Shown here in pieces: positions 14,621 to 62,550 of a DNA stretch of 64,000 nt. Made by a program: the position numbers and the translations under genes. The notes under the pieces are model-generated. The model saw only the letters and a list, made by a program, of their open reading frames with translations, was not told where the DNA came from and made no database searches. Positions within the stretch are counted from its first letter, which is position 1. The number at the start of each line of letters is the position of its first letter. The stretch covers positions 3,654-67,653 of the forward strand of contig CAZVIP010000001.1 in the NCBI GenBank assembly GCA_964627085.1, written 5' to 3'. The DNA comes from an uncultured Candidatus Saccharibacteria bacterium. Lineage in GTDB: Bacteria > Patescibacteriota > Minisyncoccia > Phycocordibacterales > CAIZLB01.

Positions 14621-16180
14621 TTAGCCATCTTTGATTTGTGTGTTATTCAATCTGGGTTCATGTCTGTAACTTAGATAATTCAGAAAGAAAATTGCAGGCA
14701 ATAGATAGGCATATGCAGTGCACATTTCAACAGTTGAATATATTTTGAGCGGTATTGTTGAGAAAGTGAATGATGAAAAAAACTCAGCCACCCATATTAT
14801 CTCTCCTAACAAAATTGATGAAACCCCTTTGAATAACATAGCGAGAGGCAAAGTGATGTAACTCGCACACAGCATAAGAAGTACCATAAGCATGGTAAAG
14901 GGAATAATAGGAAGTACGAGTATATTTGAGAAAATGAATACTGTAGAGAGATCACCTGATATGTGTAACAGAAGTGGAAATACCAAAATCTGTGTTGCAA
15001 GTGAACTTGAAATTATCTCTCGGAGCATAAATTTTTTTGGAATAAATTTTATCAAATTCCCTATCGGACCAGTCAAAGTCATAAGTCCTAGTGTCGCCAT
15101 AAAGCTCAGTTGAAAAGACATGTCGTATAGCGGAAGCAATGGATTGTGAATAGACATAATAAGTCCGGTGATAAGCAGTAGCATGACCGATGAATTCGAC
15201 TCAAGAAAACTTGTCCCGCGCGGTTCGGGGTCTAAATCTGAATTTGAATTAGGTCCGATATCACCATCACTCATCTCATTATTTTTTTCCGGAATCTTAT
15301 TTTCATAAATTCCAATGAGTGTGTTAACAATCACTGGCACACCACTCATGAGCACAGATCTGACAACGGATGGCGAGGCACCGGTCATCAAGCAAAACAA
15401 AGTCATCAAAACCAAACCGAACACTGATTGTGCAAGCGGTGGAAATCTTTTGAGAACTGAGAAAAGTGCCACCGAAATAATGGAGACATTTGATCCAGAT
15501 AAAACAACAATATGTATCAATCCAACTTTTCTGAATTGCTCGAGTAGTTCAGGTGTCATCGTACCCTTCCCCGAAATAGTGAGGCCAGAAGCAAGGTCAC
15601 TCAGTGGACTATCCAAAAGTGAAAATATTTTATTTTCTAGACGCTTCCGTAAATCAATCAAGCTCCGAGTGAGTGTAAAAGAATGCCTTTGAGTCATCTC
15701 ATGTATCACAAGTTTTTTTATTTCAAATCGTATTCTCTCTTTTCTCAAAAAGTTTGCGTAGCTCAGTTTTTTATCATCACATCCTGAGTTCCCTGAAAGA
15801 CATCTATCTATCTGACCGAGGTTACCAGAAACATACAACATGTCTCCAATATCGACCGATTCATTGATACCAATTTTCGCGAGAGTATCCACCAATGCAA
15901 GACCGTATATATTCGCTGACACATATTCTGGATCACTGACTGTGCCACACATCTTAAAATCTGCCGACTCACACACCTCTGTGACTCTTATCTTGAATGT
16001 ATATTTCTCTGATTTTATTTTTGGCTCCTCGGCGACAAGTATTTTGAAAAAACCTCTCCCGACATGTCGACTAAGTTCTGTCTCCCGAGATTCGGATTCG
16101 GTCACTGAAAAATACCGGATACCATACACCAGACAAAGCACAACCAAAAGAATAATCTGAAGTTTTGTTTTTACCCTCAC
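14621..16180 (-). CDS. comEC: ComEC/Rec2 competence-domain membrane protein (N-terminal/core ComEC module, no MBL domain)
   Basis: 519 aa polytopic. GLIHIVVLSGSNVSII matches the ComEC competence-domain signature. Low-complexity insert present. Apparent GTG start. Confidence 0.75.
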   Translation of the reverse strand: MRVKTKLQIILLVVLCLVYGIRYFSVTESESRETELSRHVGRGFFKILVAEEPKIKSEKYTFKIRVTEVCESADFKMCGTVSDPEYVSANIYGLALVDTLAKIGINESVDIGDMLYVSGNLGQIDRCLSGNSGCDDKKLSYANFLRKERIRFEIKKLVIHEMTQRHSFTLTRSLIDLRKRLENKIFSLLDSPLSDLASGLTISGKGTMTPELLEQFRKVGLIHIVVLSGSNVSIISVALFSVLKRFPPLAQSVFGLVLMTLFCLMTGASPSVVRSVLMSGVPVIVNTLIGIYENKIPEKNNEMSDGDIGPNSNSDLDPEPRGTSFLESNSSVMLLLITGLIMSIHNPLLPLYDMSFQLSFMATLGLMTLTGPIGNLIKFIPKKFMLREIISSSLATQILVFPLLLHISGDLSTVFIFSNILVLPIIPFTMLMVLLMLCASYITLPLAMLFKGVSSILLGEIIWVAEFFSSFTFSTIPLKIYSTVEMCTAYAYLLPAIFFLNYLSYRHEPRLNNTQIKDG

Positions 16181-17140: not shown

Positions 17141-18928
17141 TTATATAACATTTAAAACTTTTATCCTGACTTCACTTGCTCCCCTAAACTGATTGAGCTC
17201 AAGCTGGCCAATAATGACTGGGTTTTTGATAGCCATGAGCTCAGCGAGCTTGTCCGCTCCAGTATATTCAGTAAAAAACTGTATACCTTTTATATGCCCG
17301 CAATCAATTTCTAGATGCTCTTTTGTCTTACCAAATAGCCTAGGTGAAATAGCATGTAGCCCTCTTATCGCAAAGATAGGTCTTTCATTTCCAACTCCAA
17401 ATGGCGACAGCTTGGCAATTTCAGTATATAAACCACGACCAACATCCTTGATATCAATTTCAAGGTCGACAATTGGCAGATCCGAACCTGTAGGCGAAGC
17501 ACTTTCTGACAGACCTGCATCTGCAATTTTATTTTTATTGTCGCTTTTATTCACATATATTTTGTGAAAAGCGCCAACAAGCCCCGCCTCAAGCTCCGCA
17601 ACTTGTTCATTCGTAGTCGAAAACCCTCCTGACATGGCATGTCCGCCTTTGTTCACAAATAAACCCTCTCTAGTACCATTCATAAGCTCGACAATATCGA
17701 CACCCTCAACAGATCTCACTGAACCTTTTATAAGTCCATCATCACTTTGACCCCATACAAATACAGGCTTTTTTGCCAGCTTGAGTATTTGTGTGGCTAC
17801 AAGCCCGAGTATCGGCGGTTTCCATCCTTTGTCACCAATGACAATCACCGGCAACTGTGCGTCCATACCCTTGAGCATAGTATTCACCTGCTTCATGGTT
17901 TCAGCGACCATTGTTTTTCGTTTTGTATTGATGGTGTCGAGCTCTTTTGCCAATCTCATAGCATCATCAAAATTTTGTGCAGTAAGTAAATCAAAAGCCA
18001 ATGCAGGAGAGGCAAGTCTTGAAGCAACATTGATGCGTGGCGAGATTGTAAATGTCACATCTTCTTCCTGCATCTTACTTTTTGGAATAGCATTGCATTC
18101 ACAAAGGGCATTTATCCCAAATCTCTTTGACTTACGAAGAACAATTAGACCGAAATACGCAAGGACACGATTTTCACCAACAAGTGGTACCATGTCAGAT
18201 AACGTTGAAATACCCACCAAATCAAGGAGCCATTTTTCATACCCTTCTGGAATACTAGCCTTATATATAAGGTTATTTTGTTGAATAGTTTTGACCAAAG
18301 CGACGACAATCTTATACATCACCGCAGCTCCACAGAGCATTTTTTCAGGATATAGACATGTCTGCTGTTTTGGATTCACAATTGCAAATACATCCGGCAC
18401 AATATCATGTGGCAAGTGATGATCTGTAACAACAATATCAATATCTCTCCCTTTTGTTTTTTGTGAATAAGCTCTGATATCAGCACATGGAGCAACATCT
18501 GCAATACCACAATCAATCGTGATAACCAACCTGCAATCAGCATCAATATATGGCTCAACTACTGAGCTATGTAGTCCGAAACCTTTTTCGTGTCTATCTG
18601 GGGCAATATACGAGACATTTGAATATGAAATTGTCGTAAAGAAATCATGAATTATAGATGCCCCTGGCAAACCATCTGCATCATAATCAGAGTAAATTAA
18701 AATATGTTCATTGTTTTCAATAGCAGAAAGTATCCTTGTGACTACTTTTTCCATATCCTTGAGTAAAAAAGGGTCATGTATACCCGACTCAAAATCTGGT
18801 GACAAAAACGAATCCCTTTCAATGTCAGAGACTCCACGCAAGTGAAGTAATTTATCCAAAATACTCATATCTTTATAATCCGCATCGAATCCTTTTCCAC
18901 CAGTATGCTGCTTGAGTATATATTTCAT
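17141..18928 (-). CDS. recJ: Single-stranded-DNA-specific exonuclease RecJ
   Basis: 595 aa. DHH motifs (YSDYDADGL, VTDHH) and DHHA1 region. Confidence 0.9.
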   Translation of the reverse strand: MKYILKQHTGGKGFDADYKDMSILDKLLHLRGVSDIERDSFLSPDFESGIHDPFLLKDMEKVVTRILSAIENNEHILIYSDYDADGLPGASIIHDFFTTISYSNVSYIAPDRHEKGFGLHSSVVEPYIDADCRLVITIDCGIADVAPCADIRAYSQKTKGRDIDIVVTDHHLPHDIVPDVFAIVNPKQQTCLYPEKMLCGAAVMYKIVVALVKTIQQNNLIYKASIPEGYEKWLLDLVGISTLSDMVPLVGENRVLAYFGLIVLRKSKRFGINALCECNAIPKSKMQEEDVTFTISPRINVASRLASPALAFDLLTAQNFDDAMRLAKELDTINTKRKTMVAETMKQVNTMLKGMDAQLPVIVIGDKGWKPPILGLVATQILKLAKKPVFVWGQSDDGLIKGSVRSVEGVDIVELMNGTREGLFVNKGGHAMSGGFSTTNEQVAELEAGLVGAFHKIYVNKSDNKNKIADAGLSESASPTGSDLPIVDLEIDIKDVGRGLYTEIAKLSPFGVGNERPIFAIRGLHAISPRLFGKTKEHLEIDCGHIKGIQFFTEYTGADKLAELMAIKNPVIIGQLELNQFRGASEVRIKVLNVI

Positions 18929-26419: not shown

Positions 26420-28171
26420 TTACTCAACAGAAACCACACGCAAAATTTCTTCAATTGATGTGAGGCCTTGTACTGCTTTGAAGATTCCGTCTTCAAACAT
26501 TGTGAGCATGCCTTCTTTGCGAGCTTGTACCTCAATATCATCGCTTGTCTGTCCTTTAATAACCATTTCTTTAATTGCAGGAGAAATTTTGAGTACTTCA
26601 TGTATACCCACACGACTCTTGTACCCATCTTCACTTTCAGCATCAGGTACTGGTTTGTAGAACGGAATGGTTGTCCAGTCTGCATTTTTTTCTACGATAT
26701 TTTCCTCTCTAAGTGCATTCAATATTTTATCCATGTCCACATGTTTTGAAACCTGGGCGAGTTCTTCTTTTGTCAAAATATATTTTTGTTTTGAAGAGTG
26801 CAGTCGGCGCACAAGTCTTTGCGCAATTACCACTCGGAGTGTTGATACAAGAAGAAACGGTTCACATTTCATATCAATAAGACGCGGAATACATCCAGCT
26901 GCAGAGTTGGTGTGCAAAGTTGAAAGTACGAGGTGACCTGTGAGTGCAGCATTGATAGCGAGCGCCGCAGTTTCATTATCTCGAATTTCTCCCACCATAA
27001 TTACATCAGGGTCTTGTCGAAGAAGTGAACGAAGTCCAGAGGCAAATGTAAAACCGATTTCAGGTTTTACTTGAGTTTGATTTACACGCTTCATTTGATA
27101 CTCAACAGGATCTTCAACTGTAGAAATATTTACATCAGGTGTATTTAAAATGTCGAGAGTTGTATAGAGGGTTGTTGTCTTACCAGAACCAGTTGGCCCT
27201 GTTGTCAAAATCATACCGTCAGCGAGATTTGTAGCTTCGTGAATAAGCTCAAGGTTTCGGCCGTGAAAACCAAGTTTTTCAAGGGTAAAACCAGATGCGG
27301 TCTCACGCAAAAGTCGCATAACTGTCTTTTCTCCGAAGTATGTCGGTAGTATCGAAACTCGAAATGAAATCTTTTCGCTGTTGAGTTCGATGCGGAATCG
27401 GCCGTCTTGTGGGAGTCTCTTTTCATCCAATTTCAAATTAGAAAGTACTTTGATACGCGCAGTAATACTGGCACCAACTTTTTTTGGCAATACCATGGCA
27501 TCATGCAAAATACCGTCAATTCGATAACGCACCACGACTTCAAGTTCCATTTGTTCGATATGAATATCAGATGCATCCTGGAGTACTGCATGCTTCAAAA
27601 GTGTGTCGACAATACGAACAACAGGTAAATCCTCCGCAAGTTTTTTCAAATCTTCACCGCTTGCACTATCACCTTCTTCTTGTCTTACTTTTAGATTGCT
27701 CGCCTCTTGTTGAATAATATCTCCGAAGTCTGCCTTGAGTGTTTTTTGATATTGGATTAAAGCAGCCTTCATCGACGCCGTATTTGTCAGTCGAGGTAAA
27801 ATCTTGAGACCTGTTTTCTTTTTTACAAAATCAATAGCAGATAAATCATCTGTATCGAGCATAGCAACTTCGAGTGACTCACCTTTTTTATCGTATGCAA
27901 CAATATTGTGATTTCGTGCAATCGGTTCAGGAATAAGAGAGAGAACTTCAAACTCGAGCTTTTGATTTTTCAAATCAATAAATGGTACACCAAGTAAGTG
28001 TGCGAGTATCCTTCTATAATCATCTTCATTAATTTTTCCACCAGAAATAAGTATGTCCCCTATTTCAGATTTCTTGTCGGTTGCAGTTTGAAATGCAATA
28101 TCAAGATCACTTGCACTAATTAAACCAGATTCGACAAGTGCTTGTTTGAGTTGGGTTGATTCGATGAACAT
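26420..28171 (-). CDS. pilB: Type IV pilus assembly ATPase PilB (GspE family)
   Basis: 583 aa. Walker A GPTGSGKTTTLY, Asp box, His box. N-terminal GspII-like region. Confidence 0.92.
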   Translation of the reverse strand: MFIESTQLKQALVESGLISASDLDIAFQTATDKKSEIGDILISGGKINEDDYRRILAHLLGVPFIDLKNQKLEFEVLSLIPEPIARNHNIVAYDKKGESLEVAMLDTDDLSAIDFVKKKTGLKILPRLTNTASMKAALIQYQKTLKADFGDIIQQEASNLKVRQEEGDSASGEDLKKLAEDLPVVRIVDTLLKHAVLQDASDIHIEQMELEVVVRYRIDGILHDAMVLPKKVGASITARIKVLSNLKLDEKRLPQDGRFRIELNSEKISFRVSILPTYFGEKTVMRLLRETASGFTLEKLGFHGRNLELIHEATNLADGMILTTGPTGSGKTTTLYTTLDILNTPDVNISTVEDPVEYQMKRVNQTQVKPEIGFTFASGLRSLLRQDPDVIMVGEIRDNETAALAINAALTGHLVLSTLHTNSAAGCIPRLIDMKCEPFLLVSTLRVVIAQRLVRRLHSSKQKYILTKEELAQVSKHVDMDKILNALREENIVEKNADWTTIPFYKPVPDAESEDGYKSRVGIHEVLKISPAIKEMVIKGQTSDDIEVQARKEGMLTMFEDGIFKAVQGLTSIEEILRVVSVE

Positions 28172-32892: not shown

Positions 32893-33096
32893 AGCATTTT
32901 TGTTTGTGTATTCTAAAGGAGCATCAAGGTGACAAGGGTAGCAAATGTCTATATGCAGCCATATTTTATTGATCTTTCGCAATCTACCCGGTGACAAGTT
33001 TTGTCAGGCTTTGATTGTGATAAATTAACACCTTTCTCCGAAAAAAATATAGGACGAACGCACACATACGTCAAAGTGTTGACACATATTGACAAC

Positions 33097-33855
33097 ATGT
33101 ATACCATATCAGTCATGGAACTCCTAACGGAAAAAGAAAAACAAATACTGGCCTCTTTATACAAAAATGGCTCAAGTCCAATTAGTAAAATCGCTAAGGA
33201 TACCCTCATAAATAGAACAGCCCTCTATCACACCTTTGATCTATTAATTAAAAAAGGGTTAATCAACAAAAGCATTCGGGAGAACACTTCATACTTTGCA
33301 CCCCTACCACTACCTGAATTTAGAGAATGGCTCAAAAAGCAAAAAAGCCAACTAGAAAAAGAAACCGACTCACTAAGTCAGTGGTCAAAAAATGTTAAGC
33401 AAAACTCGGGCGACAACCTTCAGACCGAAATCAAATACTATTCGGGTATTGAGGGGATGGAATATCTATATGCGGATGGCCTCAGGGATAATCCAGGAAA
33501 AGAAATCCTAGCCATTACAGACTACGATAAAGCTTATACAGAATTTAAAGGCTTCTTTGAGAATGAATATTTCCCTACCCGCGTAAAAAAAGGTATCCAT
33601 GTAAAAAGCATCGTGTCCGAAGATTCACCAGCAGGTAAAAAAGATATATCGAGAAAACAAGATCTTCTACGTCAAATGAAATTTGCAAACATATTCAAAG
33701 ATTTAGGCATCGAGCTCAACATATACAATGACAAGGTCTCTATCATTTCTCTTGATAAAAAGAACCCGACCGGCATCATCCTTAAAAACAAAATCATAAA
33801 CAATGCCTTTAGAGAGATCTTTAATTTTATTTGGAAGAATTCAAAAAGTAGGTAA
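33097..33855 (+). CDS. TrmB-like winged-HTH transcriptional regulator, paralog 1
   Basis: N-terminal TrmB-type HTH (EKQILASLYKNGSSPISKIAKDTLINRTALYHTFDLLIKKGLI). C-terminal domain shared with the five paralogs below. Hairpin terminator at 33880-33925. Confidence 0.7.
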   Translation: MYTISVMELLTEKEKQILASLYKNGSSPISKIAKDTLINRTALYHTFDLLIKKGLINKSIRENTSYFAPLPLPEFREWLKKQKSQLEKETDSLSQWSKNVKQNSGDNLQTEIKYYSGIEGMEYLYADGLRDNPGKEILAITDYDKAYTEFKGFFENEYFPTRVKKGIHVKSIVSEDSPAGKKDISRKQDLLRQMKFANIFKDLGIELNIYNDKVSIISLDKKNPTGIILKNKIINNAFREIFNFIWKNSKSR

Positions 33856-33952
33856 AAAGTAGGCAAATTTGCTCAATCCAGACGTTATAATACCCGCCCA
33901 AATTGCTCGGGGCGGGTATTTGATTTGTGTCGGTGCTGTTGCACCGATGATT

Positions 33953-34387
33953 TTAGCGCGCGAACCGGGCAAGCCGGTTGCGTCGGGCGTTTGCCTGGCG
34001 CGCGGTGTGGAAGGTGACAAACATCACACCAACAGCTAAAACGTCAAAGAGAAAGACGGTGCCTAACATTGCCTTGTGCACGATATTGGCATAACTGCCA
34101 TTACCATGCAGTTGGACTGACTTGCGAACCATCTCCCCGACACAGCCGGTGAAAAAAGTTGCAGCCAAGACTGAGAAGCATGTTAGGAGAAAGTCAACCT
34201 CCTGCCGATTGAACATCGGCACTTTCGGCTGACTTGCTTTCAACTCTGCCTCATAGACGGCGCGGTCTTCTGCTACTCGGCGAGCAATCTCTGCGGGAGA
34301 GAGAAACTTTACACGGATCTTGACGGTCTGCTTTTTAAGGGTGTCGCCTGAATTTTTTGGCCGTGATTGGTCATCGAACTGATTCAT
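33953..34387 (-). CDS. Hypothetical membrane protein, high-GC (foreign-looking) gene
   Basis: 144 aa. Soluble N-terminal region followed by two predicted TM helices. Local GC is about 55-60% against about 38% in neighbours. Confidence 0.5.
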   Translation of the reverse strand: MNQFDDQSRPKNSGDTLKKQTVKIRVKFLSPAEIARRVAEDRAVYEAELKASQPKVPMFNRQEVDFLLTCFSVLAATFFTGCVGEMVRKSVQLHGNGSYANIVHKAMLGTVFLFDVLAVGVMFVTFHTARQANARRNRLARFAR

Positions 34388-34602
34388 GGGATTTTCTGGG
34401 TTGTGGCCTTTTGGGCCGGGTTGGTGGATTTGTTGTTGGTTCGCTACGTCCCACGGTGACAGTTTGTCAGAGTGATAGAAACGGTAAGATGGAAAGAATA
34501 TCCTTGTATATTATACTACTTTTGGTGGTTTTGTCAATGTTTTGTCCTCCCTTGTCCCCTTAAGACCTAGAATTACCTGCAATACCCGGCCAGAAGCCAG
34601 AC

Positions 34603-35619
34603 CTACTGCAAGATATTATAAATCCCATCATTGATTTTCTGTTCCTCACCAAAGGCTTGTTTTCGAGCTTCTTTGTAGAGCATATACATGGCTACAATTT
34701 GTGCATAGCTTTTGGCCTGCTGGACGAGTTGATCAGCGTATGTTTTCGCCATATCCCCTGTCATTTTTCCGAGGAGTTCATTTTGGGCCAAAGCGCCAAC
34801 ACCTATACTCACCGCACCCACAATTGCAGTTGTTGTCGCAGACACAATACTTCCAACTGCATCAGTTCCGAGATTGAGGATGAGTGCCTTTTTGAATGCT
34901 TCAGTTTTTGAGACTTCATTGAGCGCATTCATTTCTGTGACCACAATCAGGAACACATCGCGAGGCATAGCCTGGAGAGTCACGTGATCAAGGAAAATAA
35001 ACCAAGAGTATCTTGTCTTGATTCTTACATAGTATGAAAGCACCAAAATTACTGCGAGCAATACTACAAAATATCCGATGACTATAGGTAGCACCATATT
35101 TGAAGCGATACTAAATGATCCAATAATATTTACCGTACTCATAACTGGATCCAAAGATAATATAGTCGCACCTTTTGTAAATACAAAAATAATTGATGCA
35201 ATAAATAGCAAAACTAGAAGTTGAATGAGGAGCTGATATTTAAAAAACATTCTCACACGAAAATGTATCGTTTGCTTAAATAGCTTTTTTGAAATCTTTG
35301 AGCTCTGGTCTGGAGTGAGCTCTCTTTTATCAAAAAATGAATCAATCCAAATATTTTTCTCTGTCTCAAACACAAATGTAAAAAACCAAGAATAAATTAG
35401 AGCGAAAATAACATAGGTCACCGCAACATAGATATACGGCGCAGAGAGTAAGAGTGAAGTAAAAGCTTCTTTGCCCATAGCCTGTACACCCAAATACCCA
35501 ATACCGATTGCAAGTAGTGCTGGCCAGACAATAATAAAAGTCCTCCACATCAATGTCTTTTTTCGCAAATTAAGTTGCGCACCAATGGTCGAGATAATCT
35601 CTTTATATGTTGTATTCAT
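34603..35619 (-). CDS. Hypothetical polytopic membrane protein
   Basis: 338 aa with at least six hydrophobic helices and a C-terminal amphipathic segment. Co-oriented downstream of the helicase gene. Confidence 0.55.
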   Translation of the reverse strand: MNTTYKEIISTIGAQLNLRKKTLMWRTFIIVWPALLAIGIGYLGVQAMGKEAFTSLLLSAPYIYVAVTYVIFALIYSWFFTFVFETEKNIWIDSFFDKRELTPDQSSKISKKLFKQTIHFRVRMFFKYQLLIQLLVLLFIASIIFVFTKGATILSLDPVMSTVNIIGSFSIASNMVLPIVIGYFVVLLAVILVLSYYVRIKTRYSWFIFLDHVTLQAMPRDVFLIVVTEMNALNEVSKTEAFKKALILNLGTDAVGSIVSATTTAIVGAVSIGVGALAQNELLGKMTGDMAKTYADQLVQQAKSYAQIVAMYMLYKEARKQAFGEEQKINDGIYNILQ

Positions 35620-35826
35620 GCATTAAATTATCTCGTGAAATTGTGCGGGGTGCAAATGTTAAAACCCTCCTACACCATTTCTGATGCGGGAGGGGTCTTT
35701 GAGTTTATGGATAACTCAATCTTCAAATCTGGCTTTAATACCTGATCTTTAGAAACCTGTGGAGATACCACTATGTGGTGTAACGAGACACCTTGTTGGA
35801 ACAATTAATGTTGAATCAATTGCTTG

Positions 35827-38157
35827 TTACTTTTTCTTGCCAAGGAACTTGGGCCACCCTGGGAAGTTAGCATAATATACGGCAGGTGCACTCGGAAGAC
35901 GCGGGTCTTCTTTGTATCTCTTCTTATATTCTTCCACCGTCCTAATTCCCAATGCAATCACAGCTTTCGATGCTTTTCGCCATGTTGCATAGTAATCCTT
36001 TTTGGTTCCTCCGAGAAATATAGGCCAGCCGGGCCAATCTAAGGGGTAGACAAGATGGGGATTACTTGGAAGACGCGGATCTTCTGTGTACCGTTTAATA
36101 TAATCAATTTTACCTTCAATCCCTTTGGCAATCGCAGCTTTGCTTGCTTCTTCACATGTGCCATAGAAGCTCTTTGTCAAACCTCCAAAGAACACAGTGT
36201 AGCCTGGCCAGTCAGAGTAGTAGACATCAGGAGTGCTTGGAAGACGAGGATCTTCTTTGCACCTATTTTTATATTCTCTCATACTTTCAATCCCTTTTGC
36301 TACCACAGCTTTCGAAGCTTCTTGCCATGTTCCATAGAAATCTTTTTTGGACCCACCAAAGAACACAGTATAGCCAGGAAAGTCTGAGTAGTAGGTATGG
36401 GGAGTACTTGGAAGACGAGGATCTTCTTTGCACCTTGAAGTATATTCTTTACAATTCCTGATCCCTGATGCAATCACTGCTTTCGAAGCTTCTTGCCATG
36501 TTCCATAGAAGCTTTTTGCAGAGCCTCCGAGAAATACACGCCAGCAAGGAAAATCTGAGTAGTACCTATCAGGTGCACTTGGAAGACGCGGATCTTCTGT
36601 GTACCGTTTAATATAATCTATTTTACCTTCAATCCCTTTAGCAATCGCGGCTTTGCTTGCTTCTGCACAGGTCTCATAGAAATTCTTCGCAGAACCCCCG
36701 AGAAACACCGTATAGCCTGGGAAGTCAGTATAATAAACATGAGGCGCACTCGGAAGACGAGAATCTTCTCTGTGTCTAGACCTATAGTCTCTCAGATTTT
36801 CAATTCCCATCGCAATCGCCGCCTCACTCGCTTCTGCACAAGTACCATAGAAGTTCTTCTTCAAAGAAGCGTAGAACTCGATGAGCTCCAGCGCCTCTTT
36901 TTCAAAAGTATACGTGATACCCTCGAACTTAATTACGAGAGTTTTCTTATGCTGAATTTTCTGTGAACTACTAAGTGCAGCACCAAAGGTTTGAAACAAG
37001 CTATCTAGCTTTTGCCTATTATGAGCAAAGTCCAGAACAGTGAGTTTCTTTTTACCCTTAGTAGCCAAACGAAGTCCACGACCTACTTGCTGAATCCAGG
37101 CATTTTTGAATCCATGGGCACGTAAGAGCACAACAAGATCAACGGCCGGAATATCAACCCCTTCGTTAAGTGCGTCAACCGCGGCGATATACCGAAGCTG
37201 ACCAGACTTAAATGCTTCAAGAGTTTCTTCATTCCGTTTCCTTATCCTACTCATACTTTTCGTCCCATCGGTTGAACCCGAGTGAAGCGCTTTGCAGCTA
37301 GGCATGAGTTCCGCAATCAGGTTCGCATGGGCAATATTTCTGCAGAATACCAAACCGTGTGTGCATGTATGCTCGAGGATTTTGTTGACAAACTCTTGCT
37401 CCTGCTCTCTGACCAAGACTTCATGTTTTATTTCATCTGGATCATGTTGACTCCTGACGCGGTCTTTCTCCGCCTCTATCTTTCCTTTGAGAGCGTCATC
37501 AAATGTGCCCCCAACAAAATGATAGTCAACATGAGGGAACAACCCTCTTTTGAGTGCGGTTTCACCATCGAGCAGATACGACTCTTCACCAAAGAGGTCT
37601 TTGATGTTGCGACGATCTGCTCTATCTGGAGTTGCAGTCATGCCAAGTTTATATGCCACAAAATGCTCGAGGGTTGGTCTATAGGTATCCGCTTGGCTCC
37701 AATGGGATTCATCCACTGTCACCACGTCGAAATACTTTTTATCCCATCGATACAAGTTTTTACCCATGGTCTGCCATGTAGCAAAGACAAACCGAGCTTG
37801 GTGTGCCTTCTTCTTTGAACTCTGTCCATTATACGAGGCCATGGAAACGGTATTGCCAAAGAAAGCTTTAAACGCCTTCATTGCCTGCACCAGGATGTAG
37901 TTGTTGTGCACGAGGAATAGCACTCTACCCGTCTCACCTTTTGACAGATAATCCAGTAGTGCCTGAACAATATGCATGGATGTAATGGTCTTTCCGAGGC
38001 CTGTGCCCATAACTAGCAAGGCCTGGTGTTTCTTGATTAGATCACTTAAGCAGGCTTCTACGGCCTCTGTTTGGTATGGACGTAGTGTGATTTTATTTTT
38101 TGGATTTGTTTGTTTTGCTAGTTTCGGTGTTTTTGTTGATTTTGTTGTTTTTTTCAT
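35827..38157 (-). CDS. Superfamily-2 (ResIII/DEAD-like) helicase with six C-terminal 57-aa tandem repeats of the integrase-type repeat unit
   Basis: Motifs I (GTGLGKT), II (VDESHW), III (MTATP) and VI (QQVGRGLR). The C-terminal 345 aa are six repeats of F[YW]xTxxEASKAxIAxGIxxxxEYxxRxKEDPRLPSxPxxxYxDFPGWxxFLGG. Confidence 0.85.
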   Translation of the reverse strand: MKKTTKSTKTPKLAKQTNPKNKITLRPYQTEAVEACLSDLIKKHQALLVMGTGLGKTITSMHIVQALLDYLSKGETGRVLFLVHNNYILVQAMKAFKAFFGNTVSMASYNGQSSKKKAHQARFVFATWQTMGKNLYRWDKKYFDVVTVDESHWSQADTYRPTLEHFVAYKLGMTATPDRADRRNIKDLFGEESYLLDGETALKRGLFPHVDYHFVGGTFDDALKGKIEAEKDRVRSQHDPDEIKHEVLVREQEQEFVNKILEHTCTHGLVFCRNIAHANLIAELMPSCKALHSGSTDGTKSMSRIRKRNEETLEAFKSGQLRYIAAVDALNEGVDIPAVDLVVLLRAHGFKNAWIQQVGRGLRLATKGKKKLTVLDFAHNRQKLDSLFQTFGAALSSSQKIQHKKTLVIKFEGITYTFEKEALELIEFYASLKKNFYGTCAEASEAAIAMGIENLRDYRSRHREDSRLPSAPHVYYTDFPGYTVFLGGSAKNFYETCAEASKAAIAKGIEGKIDYIKRYTEDPRLPSAPDRYYSDFPCWRVFLGGSAKSFYGTWQEASKAVIASGIRNCKEYTSRCKEDPRLPSTPHTYYSDFPGYTVFFGGSKKDFYGTWQEASKAVVAKGIESMREYKNRCKEDPRLPSTPDVYYSDWPGYTVFFGGLTKSFYGTCEEASKAAIAKGIEGKIDYIKRYTEDPRLPSNPHLVYPLDWPGWPIFLGGTKKDYYATWRKASKAVIALGIRTVEEYKKRYKEDPRLPSAPAVYYANFPGWPKFLGKKK
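35830..36870 (-). repeat. Intragenic tandem repeat array (6 x 171 bp) encoding the helicase C-terminal repeats; units 2 and 5 near-identical at DNA level
   Basis: About 95-nt near-identical segments at 36061-36160 and 36572-36672 (cttggaagacgcggatcttctgtgtaccgtttaatataatc...), 3 units apart. Confidence 0.85.
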
Positions 38158-38461: not shown

Positions 38462-39211
38462 ATGCAAACAACATCAAAACCACTGGAACAAACCCTTAAA
38501 AATATAGGTTTTGAGGATAAAGAGGCGAAAATATACCTCGCCCTACTTCAACTTGGACCTAGTGATGCAAAGGCAATTAGTGGAAAGTCAGGAATCAAAA
38601 AACCAACCACATATGTCATTTTGGAGAGTCTACGTCAGAAAAATGCGGTGCTCTTTCTCCCTAATGCCAAAAAGAAATTATTTGCAGCCAAAAAACCTGA
38701 TGAAATATTTGAGGAAGCAAATAAGCGTATACATTCTGCATTTAGCCAACTCCCCCTTCTGAATGCACTCTCTCGAAACTCCAAGGAAAAAGCTATGGTC
38801 ACCTATTATGAAGGAAAGGCTGGCTACGCACAGGCTATGCAATATAAACAAGATGAGGTTATACGAATAGGTGAACTCCCTTGTTATTTTGCAGCTGCAT
38901 TTAATATTGACCCGGATATCCTGGTTGCTGTGGACAAATACATGAGTCACCTCAAGAAAAACAAAGTGCACTTACGTGGTTTTGCACCAGAACATGAAAC
39001 TATTCACTTTTATCAATCAAAAGATCCTGAATTCTTGAGCGATATCAAAATTCTTCCTTATGAGGTGTATAGCGGTAGATCATCAATTGAGATTAGCGAA
39101 ACCTTTGTGAGATTCACTTTATTTGAAGAGCAGATGTTCGTAATCATAGACAACACTGAAATTGCAAAAATCATGAAGCAGATCTTCGAAATGAATTGGA
39201 GGGCGTATTAA
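38462..39211 (+). CDS. TrmB-like winged-HTH transcriptional regulator, paralog 2
   Basis: EAKIYLALLQLGPSDAKAISGKSGIKKPTTYVILESLRQKNAV HTH. Divergent from the helicase gene. Confidence 0.7.
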   Translation: MQTTSKPLEQTLKNIGFEDKEAKIYLALLQLGPSDAKAISGKSGIKKPTTYVILESLRQKNAVLFLPNAKKKLFAAKKPDEIFEEANKRIHSAFSQLPLLNALSRNSKEKAMVTYYEGKAGYAQAMQYKQDEVIRIGELPCYFAAAFNIDPDILVAVDKYMSHLKKNKVHLRGFAPEHETIHFYQSKDPEFLSDIKILPYEVYSGRSSIEISETFVRFTLFEEQMFVIIDNTEIAKIMKQIFEMNWRAY

Positions 39212-40068: not shown

Positions 40069-40914
40069 CTATTTATCCAGTTTTGCATTCCATGACAACT
40101 CAAAAATCATTTTCATTAGCCCGTGTATTGTTTTGTCTTCGATTATTACACCAGTGAAATTATCATCTTCGAGATTCACTATTGAGACCTTGTTCTCGCC
40201 GTATATTGTTATTTCTGCGTTATACGCAAAGATACCTGCTGGGACGAATTTCATCAATGGTATAATCGACTCCTTAAAACCGTCATAGTTTCGCGCGGTA
40301 AAACCCTTATCACTTTCTGTCTCTGGGACAATTGCTCTAGTTGCAATACCCATACGTTCTTTTTCTCTGCGATATTTTTTAAAAAAATTGTCGGGAAGGG
40401 CTTGCTCGAGCTTTGTCGCATTTGCCCAAGCGAGCATTTCATATGCAACTTCAACTTGAATATGATCTTCATATACATTGATAACCCCGTCTATTCCTTG
40501 ATAATAAGTTACTTTCGGCCTCTCTGTTTTATGCATCAAATCTTGAATAATCGGCAGGATGGTTTGTGCTTGATTGATTTCATCTTGAATAAGGGACAGC
40601 TTTGACTTTGTATACTTGAGTAGCTTGGACGGGTTCTCTAGCTGATAAAATAGTTTATTCTTTTTTTCCACCTCATTTACAACCCCCTTTACCGACATTT
40701 GGAGCAATAACGAATACACAGTACCCCTCTTAATGCCCGTGTATTCAGCAATCTTTGATGGAAAGGCCCCTCCAAGTTCCAATAAAGCCAGATAAATCAG
40801 TGATTCCTTCTCATTTAAACCAGATTTTTGAAGTTTTTTAAGCAGGATCTCATTCTTGATTTTCATGATTAAATTATAATTTTTTAGGTTACTTTTGTCA
40901 ATTTGTTCTGACAA
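40069..40914 (-). CDS. TrmB-like winged-HTH transcriptional regulator, paralog 3
   Basis: EKESLIYLALLELGGAFPSKIAEYTGIKRGTVYSLLLQMSVKGVV HTH. Shared C-terminal domain ending FELSW. Confidence 0.7.
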   Translation of the reverse strand: MSEQIDKSNLKNYNLIMKIKNEILLKKLQKSGLNEKESLIYLALLELGGAFPSKIAEYTGIKRGTVYSLLLQMSVKGVVNEVEKKNKLFYQLENPSKLLKYTKSKLSLIQDEINQAQTILPIIQDLMHKTERPKVTYYQGIDGVINVYEDHIQVEVAYEMLAWANATKLEQALPDNFFKKYRREKERMGIATRAIVPETESDKGFTARNYDGFKESIIPLMKFVPAGIFAYNAEITIYGENKVSIVNLEDDNFTGVIIEDKTIHGLMKMIFELSWNAKLDK

Positions 40915-41799: not shown

Positions 41800-42627
41800 T
41801 CAGAAAGAATTGTCAATTTTATTTGCACACATCCCCCAGGCAATATCAAAAACCATTTTTATCATACCGTAAAAAGCCTCATCTTCGATAACTACCCCTA
41901 TAATCTTCTTATCTTCATGTTGTTTTCCTAGTTTGAACATTGCTATTTTATTTTTTCCATACAACGTCATTTCGCTTGCCCAAGGAAAGATTTCCTTGTT
42001 GACTTTCCTGATCTGAGGAAAGTATCTTGTATTCTTCATAAAACCATATACGTTCTCGGCAAAAGAGTTTCCGTACTTATCATCAGGGACAAGTGCGCGC
42101 ATGGTAATTTTTTGCGACAATTTACCTTTTGTAAACTCAGATTGCTCCTGTTTAGAAAGATACCCATCAAAAGCCTTTGCATTGAATATTGTGGACATCT
42201 CATAATTTTTATACCTGAGCATGTCAAAATATATTTCTTTGATTTCACTATATCCATTGAAAATGGATATTTTAGGCAATGCTCCGAAAGAAGAAAACAA
42301 CTCCGTAAGATGAGGAATAGCTTTTTTAATTCCGGCCATTTTTTTATTAAAATCTTTATGTTGATATTCGATATAACTCAATAGTTTTTCAGGTGAAGAT
42401 AATATGTAAAAAACTTTTTTATTTTTCTCTACATCAGAAACCAAACCTTTGATAGCAAGAGACGTGAGTGTCTTGTAGCATGTACTCCTGTTTATATGAG
42501 CCTCTTTAGCAATTGCTGAGGGAAAACCTTGTCCACCCAGCCTAAACAATGAGACGTAAACTATTTTTTCTTTGTCAGATAATCCCATATTCTCCATTTG
42601 TTGTACGAGATATTTGAGTGTTTGCAT
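41800..42627 (-). CDS. TrmB-like winged-HTH transcriptional regulator, paralog 4
   Basis: DKEKIVYVSLFRLGGQGFPSAIAKEAHINRSTCYKTLTSLAIKGLV HTH. C-terminus ends FDIAWGMC, as in paralog 5. Confidence 0.7.
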   Translation of the reverse strand: MQTLKYLVQQMENMGLSDKEKIVYVSLFRLGGQGFPSAIAKEAHINRSTCYKTLTSLAIKGLVSDVEKNKKVFYILSSPEKLLSYIEYQHKDFNKKMAGIKKAIPHLTELFSSFGALPKISIFNGYSEIKEIYFDMLRYKNYEMSTIFNAKAFDGYLSKQEQSEFTKGKLSQKITMRALVPDDKYGNSFAENVYGFMKNTRYFPQIRKVNKEIFPWASEMTLYGKNKIAMFKLGKQHEDKKIIGVVIEDEAFYGMIKMVFDIAWGMCANKIDNSF

Positions 42628-44068: not shown

Positions 44069-44833
44069 TTAAACACACATCCCCCAGGCAAACAAAAACA
44101 CCTGCTTGAACATATTTGAAATTGTTGGTGATGTGATAGTTACCGCATATACATGACCGTCTTTGAGTGAAAAAAGAGCCACACGCTCATCTGCAATAAT
44201 CATTGTCGAATGAAACATATGCTGTGCAGGTAAAAATCTAACCTCGCGGAACTGGTCATTTGTATATGCAGACAGACCAAGATCCTTTGCAAAATCAGGT
44301 GCGAGTAGATGTGTGAAAATTTTAAGCTTGTTTTTTCGAGCGAGCACAGCTGGCAGATACTTTGGGAAATATTCCAATAACTCCGGATGTGAAATTGTAT
44401 ATAAATTTCGATCGTCCCGAGTTTCAAGCATGTCATATAGACCCCCGATAATATCTTTTATCGAATCTTTTCCTTCATAAAACCTTACTTCTGGCTGTGG
44501 CCCAGACTTTTGCATCATAGATTCCAACTCTGGAAATATCTCTTTTATCTTTTCTGCCTTTTGCTCTGCACTTTTGACGAGACGCCTCGGATGCTCTGCA
44601 AACCAATATGCGACCTGATTTTTCTTAAAAATACCCACCAAATTAAGCTTTTTGAGTCTTTCGAGGTCATTGTAAACAGTAGTTCTTGGGAAATTGACCT
44701 GTTTTGAGATTTGAAAAACAGTCTGATCCTTATTAGCGAGGAGATATAGATAAATAGCAATCTCACGTTCATTGAGGCCAAATTCGAGTAGATTTTGGGT
44801 TAAAGAGTCTTGTGTCATAAATATGGACAACAA
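44069..44833 (-). CDS. TrmB-like winged-HTH transcriptional regulator, paralog 5
   Basis: EREIAIYLYLLANKDQTVFQISKQVNFPRTTVYNDLERLKKLNLV HTH. C-terminus FLFAWGMCV. Confidence 0.7.
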   Translation of the reverse strand: MLSIFMTQDSLTQNLLEFGLNEREIAIYLYLLANKDQTVFQISKQVNFPRTTVYNDLERLKKLNLVGIFKKNQVAYWFAEHPRRLVKSAEQKAEKIKEIFPELESMMQKSGPQPEVRFYEGKDSIKDIIGGLYDMLETRDDRNLYTISHPELLEYFPKYLPAVLARKNKLKIFTHLLAPDFAKDLGLSAYTNDQFREVRFLPAQHMFHSTMIIADERVALFSLKDGHVYAVTITSPTISNMFKQVFLFAWGMCV

Positions 44834-50141: not shown

Positions 50142-50912
50142 ATGTCAAAAATCTTTGACCAAAATACCACTAATACTGTGAAGGAGCTTTGCACCTTAGG
50201 CCTAACTGAGAAGGAGGCTTTGGTGTATCTAGCTCTTTTACCCCGTCGCGACACAGGCTCTTCCAAGCTGGTACTTGCCACCGGATTACACAAGCAGTTT
50301 GTCTACAATGCCTTAGGAAAGCTGGAGGGACTAGGTCTCGCAAAGCACGTAATTCAGAACGGGCGCAAGAAGTTCAGCGCCAACACCCCTCAACGCATCG
50401 TGAGTCTGATTGAGGAGAAAAGGGTCGCGGCAGGACGCCTAGCAGCAGAACTTCAGAAAAAATATATCGGAGCACATGATCAGGATGCAGAAATATTTCA
50501 GGGTGATAACGCTTTTGTCATGCACCAAATGAACAACATCGAGAGAGCACCTGAAGGAGCTACGCTATGTGTTATAGCAAGTGCGTCAGAACGCTATGGC
50601 GCAATTTTGCGTGAGCACGACCTTTGGGATGAATTTGAACGAATCCGAAAATCAAAAAATATTGCTATAAAATACCTGGGTTCGGAATCTCAACTTGAAA
50701 CCCTCAAAAGCAGAATGAGTGATGAAAAACCTTGGGAATATCGTATTCTTCCTGGCCACGCAACAGGACTCATGAATACTGACATTTGGGATGACCATGT
50801 AACATTCAATATATTTGGTGAACCGGTCCTTTCCATAACTATTACAGGTAAAGAAATCACCGATGGTTATCGACAATTTTTTGACACACTTTGGAAACTA
50901 GGGAGAATTTAA
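50142..50912 (+). CDS. TrmB-like winged-HTH transcriptional regulator, paralog 6 (elevated GC)
   Basis: EKEALVYLALLPRRDTGSSKLVLATGLHKQFVYNALGKLEGLGLA HTH. C-terminus FFDTLWKLG. Confidence 0.7.
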   Translation: MSKIFDQNTTNTVKELCTLGLTEKEALVYLALLPRRDTGSSKLVLATGLHKQFVYNALGKLEGLGLAKHVIQNGRKKFSANTPQRIVSLIEEKRVAAGRLAAELQKKYIGAHDQDAEIFQGDNAFVMHQMNNIERAPEGATLCVIASASERYGAILREHDLWDEFERIRKSKNIAIKYLGSESQLETLKSRMSDEKPWEYRILPGHATGLMNTDIWDDHVTFNIFGEPVLSITITGKEITDGYRQFFDTLWKLGRI

Positions 50913-60948: not shown

Positions 60949-62550
60949 ATGGTCAAAATAGCCAAAATAAAATCAATCTGCTTACAAAAAAACTCTATAA
61001 AAATAATCGATATTGAGACTGATATCAGTAGGGGATTATTCTATTACAGCATCAGCGGAAACATAGACAAATCAATATCTGAATCAAAACAACGAATACT
61101 TGCCGCACTCAAGAATAGTAACTTTGATCTACCGTCGAGAAAGAATTATAAAGTCACGACCTCTTTACTCCCAAATAATTTCCCAAAAACAAACTACGGT
61201 ACAGAATTGGGAATAGTTTTATCGTACCTCTTGGCAACCGGTCAAATACATATCCCAAAAGCTGAGAGCTATCTATGCATTGGAAACATAAGCGTTGATG
61301 GGGGTATATACTTCGAAACGACAAAACTTGTCCACGCGATATCATATGCACACTCTTTGGGGTATTCACACTTTGTTATACCGAAACTTCAAGGTGAGGC
61401 AAACAATACCTTGGTAAATTATATTAATACATTCAATAATATTTCATACATACAAGCTGAAAAGATATCAAATCTAAAAGACATCAATATAAATCAGACT
61501 AGCACTACAAAAAACACTCCATATACAACTCTCGAAATTTCTACAGCTGTCGAGGGTCAAACTGAACAAAACATAAATAAGCGATATCTCTTCGACACAA
61601 TCACTGGTCTTAAATATCAAAAACGTGCGCTCATCATTGCAGCAGCAGGAAATCACCCTTTGCTATATGCAGGCGTACCAGGTACAGGCAAGAGCACACT
61701 GGCATCGGCATGTATAGAATTACTAGACAATATTTCGCTATCTGAAATTGACGCAAATACACCAACTAAACACACAGAAAACATTTTCAAAAGAAACTCA
61801 ATGGTTATTGGGCCAGAGACCTCAATTATTAAAACAATGGGCCGGCAGGATGACTTGGAAAACTCACCTAGACAAGGAACGATAATAATCAATGAGCTAT
61901 GTGAATTTAGCAAAAAAGAAATTGAATCACTTCGTATATTCCTTGAGAATAATAATATTTACAATGATCAAATACACAAAGGGAAAATTCATAGCACATT
62001 AATTATAGCAACAACAAATAATTGTCCTTGTGGCCGCAATAGTAAAGAAAATAATAAAAATACCCAAACGGAAATAACTTGGCAAAAGCAAGACAACTCA
62101 TGCGTGTGCACCAAGAATAGAATTGAACAATATCAAAACAGATTATCAGAATCTGTTTTGGACAGGTTTCCGCTTGTTTGCAACTTTGTTTATGAAAGAA
62201 ATCACAGCACCGATGATGTTGAAAATCAAAAAGCGCAAATTAATAAAACACCTCAAGAAACAGCACTTTTTATCCACAAAAAGATAGCTGCCGCCAGGAT
62301 AATCCAGAGGAAGAGATCCCATAAATACAACCAAGAATTAACAGTTGCCGAAATATACACCCTTGGCATAACCGAACAAGGTCAAACCGAACTAAAAAAG
62401 ATTACCGACCTATTTGCATTCTCAAAAAGGAAAATACTACACACACTCCGTGTCGCAAGAACAATCGCAGACATCGAGCAAAAAACACACATAGAAAAGA
62501 CGCATATCCTTGAGGCGATTAGCCATGTCAAAGTAAGAGCCTTTAACTAA
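60949..62550 (+). CDS. comM: ComM/YifB-family Mg-chelatase-like AAA+ ATPase
   Basis: N-terminal Lon-like/ChlI domain. Walker A GVPGTGKST. C-terminal Mg_chelatase_C-like region. Contains insertions relative to canonical ComM. Confidence 0.8.
   Translation: MVKIAKIKSICLQKNSIKIIDIETDISRGLFYYSISGNIDKSISESKQRILAALKNSNFDLPSRKNYKVTTSLLPNNFPKTNYGTELGIVLSYLLATGQIHIPKAESYLCIGNISVDGGIYFETTKLVHAISYAHSLGYSHFVIPKLQGEANNTLVNYINTFNNISYIQAEKISNLKDININQTSTTKNTPYTTLEISTAVEGQTEQNINKRYLFDTITGLKYQKRALIIAAAGNHPLLYAGVPGTGKSTLASACIELLDNISLSEIDANTPTKHTENIFKRNSMVIGPETSIIKTMGRQDDLENSPRQGTIIINELCEFSKKEIESLRIFLENNNIYNDQIHKGKIHSTLIIATTNNCPCGRNSKENNKNTQTEITWQKQDNSCVCTKNRIEQYQNRLSESVLDRFPLVCNFVYERNHSTDDVENQKAQINKTPQETALFIHKKIAAARIIQRKRSHKYNQELTVAEIYTLGITEQGQTELKKITDLFAFSKRKILHTLRVARTIADIEQKTHIEKTHILEAISHVKVRAFN

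Follow-up and report, generated by a model that had tools for sequence, protein, structure and literature searches.

Described relatives and the helicase of this locus

The motor of SauUSI, a type IV modification-dependent restriction enzyme, has been shown experimentally to translocate on double-stranded DNA, and the superfamily 2 (SF2) domain that does so is followed by a C-terminal target-recognition domain (TRD) (PMC7913695). RadD (E. coli YejH) and the archaeal and bacterial XPB proteins are nuclease-less SF2 proteins of genome maintenance (PMC8887467, PMC9049331), where RadD assists RecA in strand exchange as an accessory factor (PMC8887467). Gamma-Mobile-Trio (GMT) islands, in turn, have been shown by experiment to move and to insert at specific inverted-repeat sites, and their description makes no mention of INT_rpt repeats (bioRxiv 10.1101/2023.03.28.534373). 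The gene considered here lies in a 64,000-nucleotide (nt) stretch of DNA from an uncultured Candidatus Saccharibacteria bacterium (contig CAZVIP010000001.1, positions 3,654 to 67,653), called the window below, and encodes a protein of 776 amino acids (aa) that joins an SF2 motor related to those of SauUSI, RadD and XPB to a C-terminal array of six INT_rpt units. It is read, with a probability of roughly 0.55 for the statement as a whole, as a stand-alone, nuclease-less, ATP-driven DNA translocase or helicase whose array binds DNA and anchors or targets the motor, and which most likely serves genome maintenance. The parts of the gene are as follows, aa numbers being those of the protein.

35827-38157 (stop included), minus strand: gene for the 776-aa SF2 helicase with C-terminal INT_rpt array (list of open reading frames; Pfam ResIII, Helicase_C and six INT_rpt)
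38098-38157, minus strand: Lys/Thr-rich N-terminal tail, aa 1-20, predicted to be disordered (predicted local distance difference test, pLDDT, <50 for residues 1-20)
38096-38152: 9-nt tandem repeat of 6.3 copies, overlapping the Lys/Thr-rich tail (TRF)
37006-38094, minus strand: SF2 motor core, aa 22-384, two RecA-like domains (Pfam, family alignment, AlphaFold 2 (AF2) model)
36859-37005, minus strand: linker, aa 385-433, with a beta-hairpin (406-419) and a helix (420-432), joining motor to repeats (AF2 secondary structure, alignments)

The motor core and its closest counterparts

With two RecA-like domains and motifs I, II, III and VI, the protein is an SF2 helicase of the ResIII/DExH type. 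The Pfam matches to ResIII (aa 22-179, E 6.4e-33, 114 bits) and Helicase_C (aa 257-364, E 8.5e-11, 42.5 bits) both lie above their cutoffs, and the same search found no nuclease, methylase or other effector domain. The motifs are intact (I, GTGLGKT; II, DESH; III, TATP; VI, QQVGRGLR), and in an alignment of 30 family sequences the residues K56 of motif I, D149 and E150 of motif II, and Q356, Q357, G359, R360 and R363 of motif VI are invariant. The linker block FEVSGxGFEFTFSDxVVDLMKVLE is conserved across the family alignments as well, and because of these invariant motif residues and the conserved linker the helicase is predicted to be catalytically competent. The AF2 model has a mean pLDDT of 79.9, core and repeats lying mostly above 80 (the core mostly at 75-97).

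Compared by sequence with the PDB, the motor comes closest to SauUSI (7CLG, 1.1e-34), followed by RadD (8e-22), an HsdR fragment (3H1T, 5e-14) and XPB (~1e-12), and the fold of the modelled motor leads to RadD (Foldseek E 9e-18), HsdR, SauUSI, the type ISP enzyme LlaBIII and XPB, with RadD and XPB as the best fold matches. Among phage families the protein matches phrog_16, 'DNA helicase' (PHROGs, 1.4e-62), and its PADLOC matches (mREase_IV, PbeA, REase_I) are confined to the generic core. The resemblance to SauUSI, whose mREase_IV models match at 2e-37, extends to the layout, a DNA-recognition module lying C-terminal to an SF2 translocase of double-stranded DNA; however, the window protein has neither the N-terminal PLD nuclease nor a DUF3427-type TRD, and the INT_rpt array takes the place of coupler and TRD. 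A SauUSI-like type IV enzyme was accordingly rejected as an assignment, since only positions 241-586 of the 953 in the mREase_IV model are covered and neither PF13091 nor PF11907 is present.

The other candidates share the motor and little else. RadD (NF053632) was set aside at 99.9 bits against a cutoff of 720, the fold alignment of ~400-450 columns being essentially that of the motor; a RadD-like zinc ribbon or C-terminal domain finds no match in the window protein, for sequence and fold alignments end at about residue 385-450 and the tail is unrelated. The core resembles that of the HsdR proteins of the EcoAI/FtnUII family (NCBIfam 1.3e-37; PDB 3h1t), but the EcoAI family model (NF046051) was rejected at 129.6 bits against a cutoff of 550, with only model positions 141-534 of 768 matched; its N-terminal nuclease region (positions 1-140) is uncovered, and the gene is accompanied not by hsdM and hsdS but by genes for membrane proteins and TrmB regulators. 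PbeA (PADLOC) was likewise discarded, given that the match spans only model positions 234-630 of 672, leaving its N-terminal ~230 residues unmatched, and that no neighbour gives any other PADLOC match.

The INT_rpt array

A preliminary description of the locus, made from its letters only, had proposed a helicase core followed by six integrase-type repeats, and the Pfam search bears this out: next to ResIII and Helicase_C, INT_rpt (PF14882) is matched in six separate stretches (E 2.6e-64, 213.7 bits against a cutoff of 26.5). The array is basic overall, with an isoelectric point (pI) of 9.2, and is laid out with a period of 171 nt.

35830-36858, minus strand: six INT_rpt units of 57-58 aa (171-174 nt) each (Pfam, unit table)
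36688-36858, minus strand: unit 1, aa 434-490
36517-36687, minus strand: unit 2, aa 491-547
36346-36516, minus strand: unit 3, aa 548-604
36175-36345, minus strand: unit 4, aa 605-661
36001-36174, minus strand: unit 5, aa 662-719
35830-36000, minus strand: unit 6, aa 720-776
36064-36160, minus strand: conversion or duplication tract in unit 5 (local alignment)
36577-36673, minus strand: partner tract in unit 2 (local alignment)

The two tracts, whose near-identity had been pointed out in the preliminary description, differ at ~5 positions in 97 nt (~95% identity), share a 42-nt exact core (36064-36105 and 36577-36618) and are offset by 513 nt, that is, by three units, whereas whole units are only 0.49-0.78 identical at the nucleotide level. 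Since synonymous sites within the tract are mostly identical too, the comparison indicates recent gene conversion or partial duplication within the gene, between units 2 and 5, rather than selection at the level of the peptide; the earlier proposal of a recent conversion or expansion is upheld in this respect.

Modelling of the repeats, which had been suggested at the same time, gave a confident result: a two-unit model built by AF2 from 48 aligned unit pairs has a pLDDT of 95. In it, each unit consists of two helices of ten residues and then two of a single turn around the conserved segment D-P-R-L-P-S...P...Y.DFPGW..FLG. From the consensus, positions 20-23, 26-27 and 40-42 of the unit are candidates for hypervariable sites. 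Nothing in the PDB resembles it, the best Foldseek match having an E of ~5 and a profile search at E<=10 returning nothing.

The preliminary description had further held that the motif is known chiefly from phages, mobile elements and giant viruses, and here the outcome is divided. In favour of the mobile-element part, plasmid matches of the array are annotated as 'VPA1269 family' and 'integrase repeat-containing' proteins, the best of them being the middle gene of a gmtY-(VPA1269)-gmtX Gamma-Mobile-Trio module, whose product (GmtZ) has five INT_rpt units and then an Integrase_2 domain. These five units are 38% identical to the window array over 100% of the length; GmtZ differs in that its array is N-terminal to the Integrase_2 (PF13009) recombinase and that it belongs to a three-gene mobile module of Gammaproteobacteria. 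One module of this kind, with the array forming the N-terminal half of GmtZ, was located on the Pseudomonas plasmid NZ_CP084414.1 (L182:3608-9446). For the giant viruses the likeness lies in folds: in a library of viral structure models (BFVD) the two-unit model is best matched by an unnamed 309-aa protein (E 4e-4) and by a 782-aa 'DEXDc helicase' of Bodo saltans virus (A0A2H4UVX6; E 6e-4, TMq 0.52), the latter at 17% identity and thus by structure only, and more weakly by a Marseillevirus LCMAC102 helicase (A0A481YT28, E 0.3); the two giant-virus helicases are ~780-810 aa long. The phage part found no support: the array has no match in 50,697 phage genomes, and the best matches on viral contigs are at the level of the core (23-33% identity), none of them with repeats. 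Many of the INT_rpt carriers found are chromosomal helicases of Patescibacteria or bacterial proteins that consist of repeats only.

Other helical repeats occupy the same position in related motors. The sister helicases P0041 and P0042, the nearest relatives that lack INT_rpt, have the same motor (31-37% identity), followed in the C-terminal ~300 aa, where INT_rpt would stand, by five helical HNH_repeat (PF18780) units of ~55 aa; the repeat family is another one, and a likeness between the INT_rpt and HNH_repeat profiles is no more than suggestive (hhalign probability 63%). The protein P0161, in turn, joins an HA 'helicase-associated' domain (PF03457) to five INT_rpt units. These two cases suggest that the helicase clade has repeatedly been fitted with short helical repeat arrays that are interchangeable. 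That the INT_rpt array binds DNA is a reasonable inference from its fusion to integrases and helicases, from the HNH_repeat arrays at the same position, from the protein with HA and INT_rpt, and from its pI.

The family and the evolution of its arrays

Public databases already contain the architecture, in the form of precomputed Pfam combinations and under generic NCBI names (at best 'DEAD/DEAH box helicase family protein'), and the 776-aa protein is a further member of an unstudied, widely recurring Patescibacterial family, to which it aligns end to end over motor, beta-hairpin/helix linker and INT_rpt. A database search returned ~40 proteins of identical architecture, with lengths of 442-776 aa and, among full-length members, 33-43% identity; a partial relative (P0002) is 69% identical to the window protein. 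A search with the repeat array only added many more fusions, typically of 570-590 aa, and a hidden Markov model built from the six units of the window brought the count to at least 68 helicase-INT_rpt fusions with one to six repeats (mode, three), the maximum of six being reached by the window protein and by P0003. The alignment of 30 family sequences, at 31-43% identity, shows invariant residues in motor and repeats. Profile scans of genomes and metagenomes with the family alignments gave, among the matches listed, mostly generic SF2 helicases, together with at least two and at least five true family loci. Relatives with a name belong to Candidatus Saccharibacteria, Nomurabacteria, Taylorbacteria and metagenome-assembled genomes of the 'Patescibacteria group'. 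P0003, P0004, P0226 from Candidatus Nomurabacteria and L006 from Candidatus Saccharibacteria have the same ResIII, Helicase_C, linker and INT_rpt and are stand-alone chromosomal genes, from which the window protein differs by its six units, the homogenisation of units 1-5 and its K/T-rich N-terminal tail. More distant relatives of the motor carry PLD nuclease and DUF3427, Mrr or HIT domains (P0048-P0120 have PF13091/PF11907).

The closest relative, P0002, shows how differently the two halves of the protein have fared. Over the last 261 residues of motor and linker it is 83.5% identical to the window protein, whereas its three repeats are only 36-58% identical to the window units. Judged from this comparison, the array evolves much faster than the motor and has been expanded in the lineage of the window. 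Window units 1-5 find their best match within the same protein (0.70-0.75), against 0.42-0.62 for the best unit of an orthologue; the terminal unit 6 is equally close to orthologues (0.61) and to its own neighbours (0.60). The simplest history compatible with these figures would be that the array grew in this lineage from about three units to six, that its units continue to be homogenised, and that arrays in general diverge fast relative to the motor. The range of one to six units across the 68 members, and the three units of P0002 despite its similar motor and linker, show repeat number to be labile in evolution, in line with the earlier suggestion that it may vary.

Genomic contexts of family members

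The surroundings of twelve further helicase genes of the family were examined.

P0003: CTP synthase upstream, convergent histidine kinase, 5'-3' exonuclease and RuvB nearby
P0004: divergent dprA-topA, convergent mfd
P0011: MFS transporter, convergent RNase J
P0013: holB directly upstream, dprA-topA ~5 kb away
P0002: convergent helicase-like gene, methyltransferase, GIY-YIG, diversity-generating retroelement (DGR)
L006 (Saccharibacteria): after clpB
L007: convergent secA
P0226: convergent UDG and fpg
P0020: xseAB upstream, convergent murC
L185: L-PSP, serine recombinase
L187: PD-(D/E)XK nuclease, alaS
L183: holB downstream

No neighbour is common to the twelve, and no membrane protein of the 338-aa or 144-aa families encoded downstream of the window helicase occurs among the neighbours. 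The helicase gene usually closes its transcription unit and faces a convergent gene. Genes of replication and repair recur within ~5 kb: dprA-topA and holB twice each, and mfd, ruvB, UDG with fpg, xseAB, the 5'-3' exonuclease and the PD-(D/E)XK nuclease. In two loci holB directly adjoins the helicase (L004:6765-7781; L183:2389-3171), and dprA-topA is near it in two (L002:4067-7742; L004:1-2461). The locus of P0002 (L086:1715-8993) contains, besides a DGR (RVT_1 and bAvd), a Viral_helicase1-like gene and genes for an N6/N4 methyltransferase and a GIY-YIG nuclease; within it, no pair of template and variable repeats ties the DGR to the helicase repeats.

Proposed function and its main rivals

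In the mechanism proposed, the basic, multivalent INT_rpt array would bind DNA and anchor or target the motor, in place of the coupler and TRD of SauUSI, whereupon the motor would translocate on the DNA or remodel it. The likeliest role would be one in genome maintenance, such as RadD/XPB-like repair, recombination or fork processing. Translocation on DNA by the motor is a presumed part of this scheme, and the maintenance role is drawn from two observations, the housekeeping-type contexts and the recurring replication and repair neighbours. The gene would be transcribed alone, and the membrane-protein genes behind it, like the TrmB-like regulators on either side, would be unrelated neighbours; its stand-alone status is argued from the lack of a partner in the twelve contexts, from the lack of any tblastn match to its window neighbours in 174 kb of family loci, and from a terminator hairpin and separate promoter-like sites (see below). 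The array, in this lineage, would have grown from about three to six units and would still be undergoing homogenisation by intragenic duplication or gene conversion.

A number of points weigh against this assignment. No solved structure corresponds to INT_rpt by sequence or fold, so that DNA binding by the array is itself a deduction, and in the literature searched there is no experimental study of any family member or of INT_rpt; on the function of INT_rpt/PHINT_rpt no paper was found, the sole mention being in a list of structure-less repeat families. The signal from repair-gene neighbourhoods is weak: ~9 of 13 contexts show it, whereas a rough estimate for small genomes puts the expectation at ~40%, and no neighbour is conserved. 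A fast-evolving recognition array in non-syntenic locations suits a role in conflict (defence) at least as well as it suits housekeeping, and the nearest characterised motors, namely those of SauUSI, HsdR, the type IV restriction enzymes and the PbeA core, are mostly restriction enzymes.

These last points lead to the main rival, according to which the protein is a conflict system made by a single gene, either a stand-alone factor against phages or mobile elements or a domesticated mobile-element protein, whose array recognises foreign DNA and whose motor displaces proteins or stalls replication without cutting. The variable copy number and fast divergence of the array argue for it, as do the presence of INT_rpt in integrases of mobile islands, the similar modules in giant-virus helicase models, and the absence of synteny even for P0002, which for all its similarity in the motor has a methyltransferase, a GIY-YIG nuclease and a DGR for neighbours. 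Against it stand the absence of a nuclease or other effector domain by Pfam, of any PADLOC system matched beyond the generic core, and of a repeat-carrying relative among the best viral-contig matches or in phage genomes; moreover, most contexts are housekeeping ones and not defence islands. On balance such a function is possible, if unlikely, and it is the strongest of the alternatives, ahead of an RNA-directed role, a defence operon and an error of assembly.

A role as RNA helicase or remodeller of ribonucleoproteins, in which the array would bind structured RNA instead of DNA, is improbable. Weak similarity in sequence and fold does reach DEAD-box and RIG-I-like proteins, nusA, tig and rsmE are among the neighbours in the window, and the non-significant fold matches of the repeat include ribosomal proteins. 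However, the best matches in sequence and structure (SauUSI, RadD, HsdR, XPB) are all enzymes acting on DNA, the partners of INT_rpt are integrases, and the motor carries ResIII-type 'RPYQ' and DExH motifs, which are typical of DNA translocases.

Neighbouring genes in the window

The preliminary description had grouped the helicase with two co-oriented membrane proteins encoded downstream and a divergent TrmB-like regulator, and had seen in this group a resemblance to helicase-based anti-phage systems. The genes are indeed arranged in that way, and the high GC content that had been noted for the smaller membrane protein gene was found again.

34603-35619, minus strand: 338-aa polytopic membrane protein, ~5-6 hydrophobic segments
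33953-34387, minus strand: 144-aa open reading frame (ORF) with two hydrophobic segments, GC 0.52 and GC at third codon positions (GC3) 0.58, against a GC of 0.40 for the window
35661-35699, minus strand: hairpin ending in UUUU, candidate intrinsic terminator, between the helicase stop and the 338-aa gene (RNA fold)
35627-35656, minus strand: promoter-like site TTTGCA-18-GATAAT just upstream of the 338-aa gene (consensus scan, 9/12, a weak match)
34510-34537, minus strand: perfect sigma-70 consensus TTGACA-16-TATAAT upstream of the 144-aa ORF (consensus scan, 12/12)
38462-39211, plus strand: divergent TrmB-like regulator (Pfam TrmB, 9.7e-14)
33001-33855, plus strand: the other flanking TrmB-like gene (Pfam)
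40069-40914, 41800-42627, 44069-44833 and 50142-50912: further TrmB-like paralogues

As a defence-like operon, the helicase would act as sensor or motor, the 338-aa and 144-aa membrane proteins as effectors, and the TrmB protein as regulator. The orientation of the three genes, their gaps of 207 and 215 nt and the divergent regulator fit such an operon, and the arrangement is 100% conserved in nine short-read contigs that were checked, all of them from the same strain. Co-occurrence, however, is lacking in both directions, which largely refutes the proposal and was one part of the refuting observation named for it beforehand: the 338-aa protein, the 144-aa protein, both flanking TrmB proteins and a 256-aa ORF have no tblastn match in 15 family loci (174 kb), and no helicase lies in the four loci encoding homologues of the 338-aa protein. 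The hairpin 3' of the helicase is stable (-20.1 kcal/mol, z -4.68, with no shuffle out of 200 reaching its stability), and a promoter-like site precedes each of the downstream genes. PADLOC matches nothing in the membrane proteins and, in the helicase, the generic core alone; the 144-aa protein is an orphan; and since the window holds six TrmB paralogues, adjacency to one of them says little. Conserved co-occurrence being absent from the loci compared, a multi-gene helicase-based defence system is not supported, and an operon of this kind is very improbable.

The 338-aa protein has no match in Pfam, PADLOC, NCBIfam or PHROG and belongs to a tiny family of five distant homologues (31-36% identity) in varied housekeeping neighbourhoods, where they adjoin rplS/rlmH, rpsB/tsf or ruvX/recO/asnS (loci L096-L099). 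For the 144-aa protein, a search of 1.84 billion cluster representatives yielded no relative, and its region gives no Rfam family at the gathering score, a Leu_leader match at a relaxed threshold being weak (26.9 bits against 50). The region of this ORF (33895-34540, minus strand) is a compositional island, with a leader of ~120 nt that has no obvious Shine-Dalgarno sequence and with terminator-like hairpins 3' of the stop; the fold of its transcript has a z of -3.2, where a control gives -1.2, a difference that is no more than suggestive. The island may represent an orphan gene, recently acquired DNA or an RNA of no known family.

The six TrmB-like paralogues (249-284 aa, a winged helix-turn-helix plus a C-terminal domain) lie within 17 kb and are an unusual local expansion of one regulator family. 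In its gene content the window resembles a chromosome of Patescibacteria (CPR), for it also encodes EF-G, ComEC, RecJ, a PilB-type ATPase, NusA, a DHH phosphoesterase, trigger factor, RsmE, the CCA-adding enzyme, ComM and four tRNAs. Among these, the genes of DNA uptake and recombination, ComEC, RecJ, the PilB-type ATPase and ComM (14621-16180, 17141-18928, 26420-28171 and 60949-62550), form a concentration typical of Patescibacteria.

Assembly of the array

At least 23 public short-read contigs carry the same strain, nine of which were retrieved and compared, each 100% identical to the window; these k=31 contigs all stop inside the tract shared by units 2 and 5, at 36093, 36105 or 36150. That the six units are a mis-joined or mis-counted product of assembly, as such breaks might suggest, is nevertheless hardly credible, since the longest exact repeat within the helicase gene is 42 nt, so that assembly with k>42 yields a unique six-unit path, the reading frame is unbroken through six well-formed units, and one other family member (P0003) likewise has six. 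The six-unit structure is thus probably right. Only one contig on record encodes the exact 776-aa product. In public short-read assemblies the gene will often look truncated or absent, as the internal 42-nt exact repeat breaks those made at k=31.

Significance for Patescibacteria

The failure of the reading as a helicase with membrane effectors means that this locus should stay out of catalogues of defence systems. Patescibacteria have few recognisable DNA-repair helicases and rely heavily on DNA uptake. A bolder idea, speculative and rather doubtful, is that INT_rpt arrays are a fast-evolving, modular DNA-reading head comparable to other tandem DNA-binding repeats, in which the number and sequence of units would set target specificity and so retarget a nuclease-less SF2 translocase in these bacteria. 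If it were true, the family would represent an unrecognised form of surveillance of specific DNA, foreign or chromosomal, by a single protein, and the expansion from three to six units would be an ongoing change of specificity. In any case, the contrast between a conserved motor (83.5%) and a hypervariable array (three versus six units, 36-58%) provides a concrete and testable handle on the function of INT_rpt.

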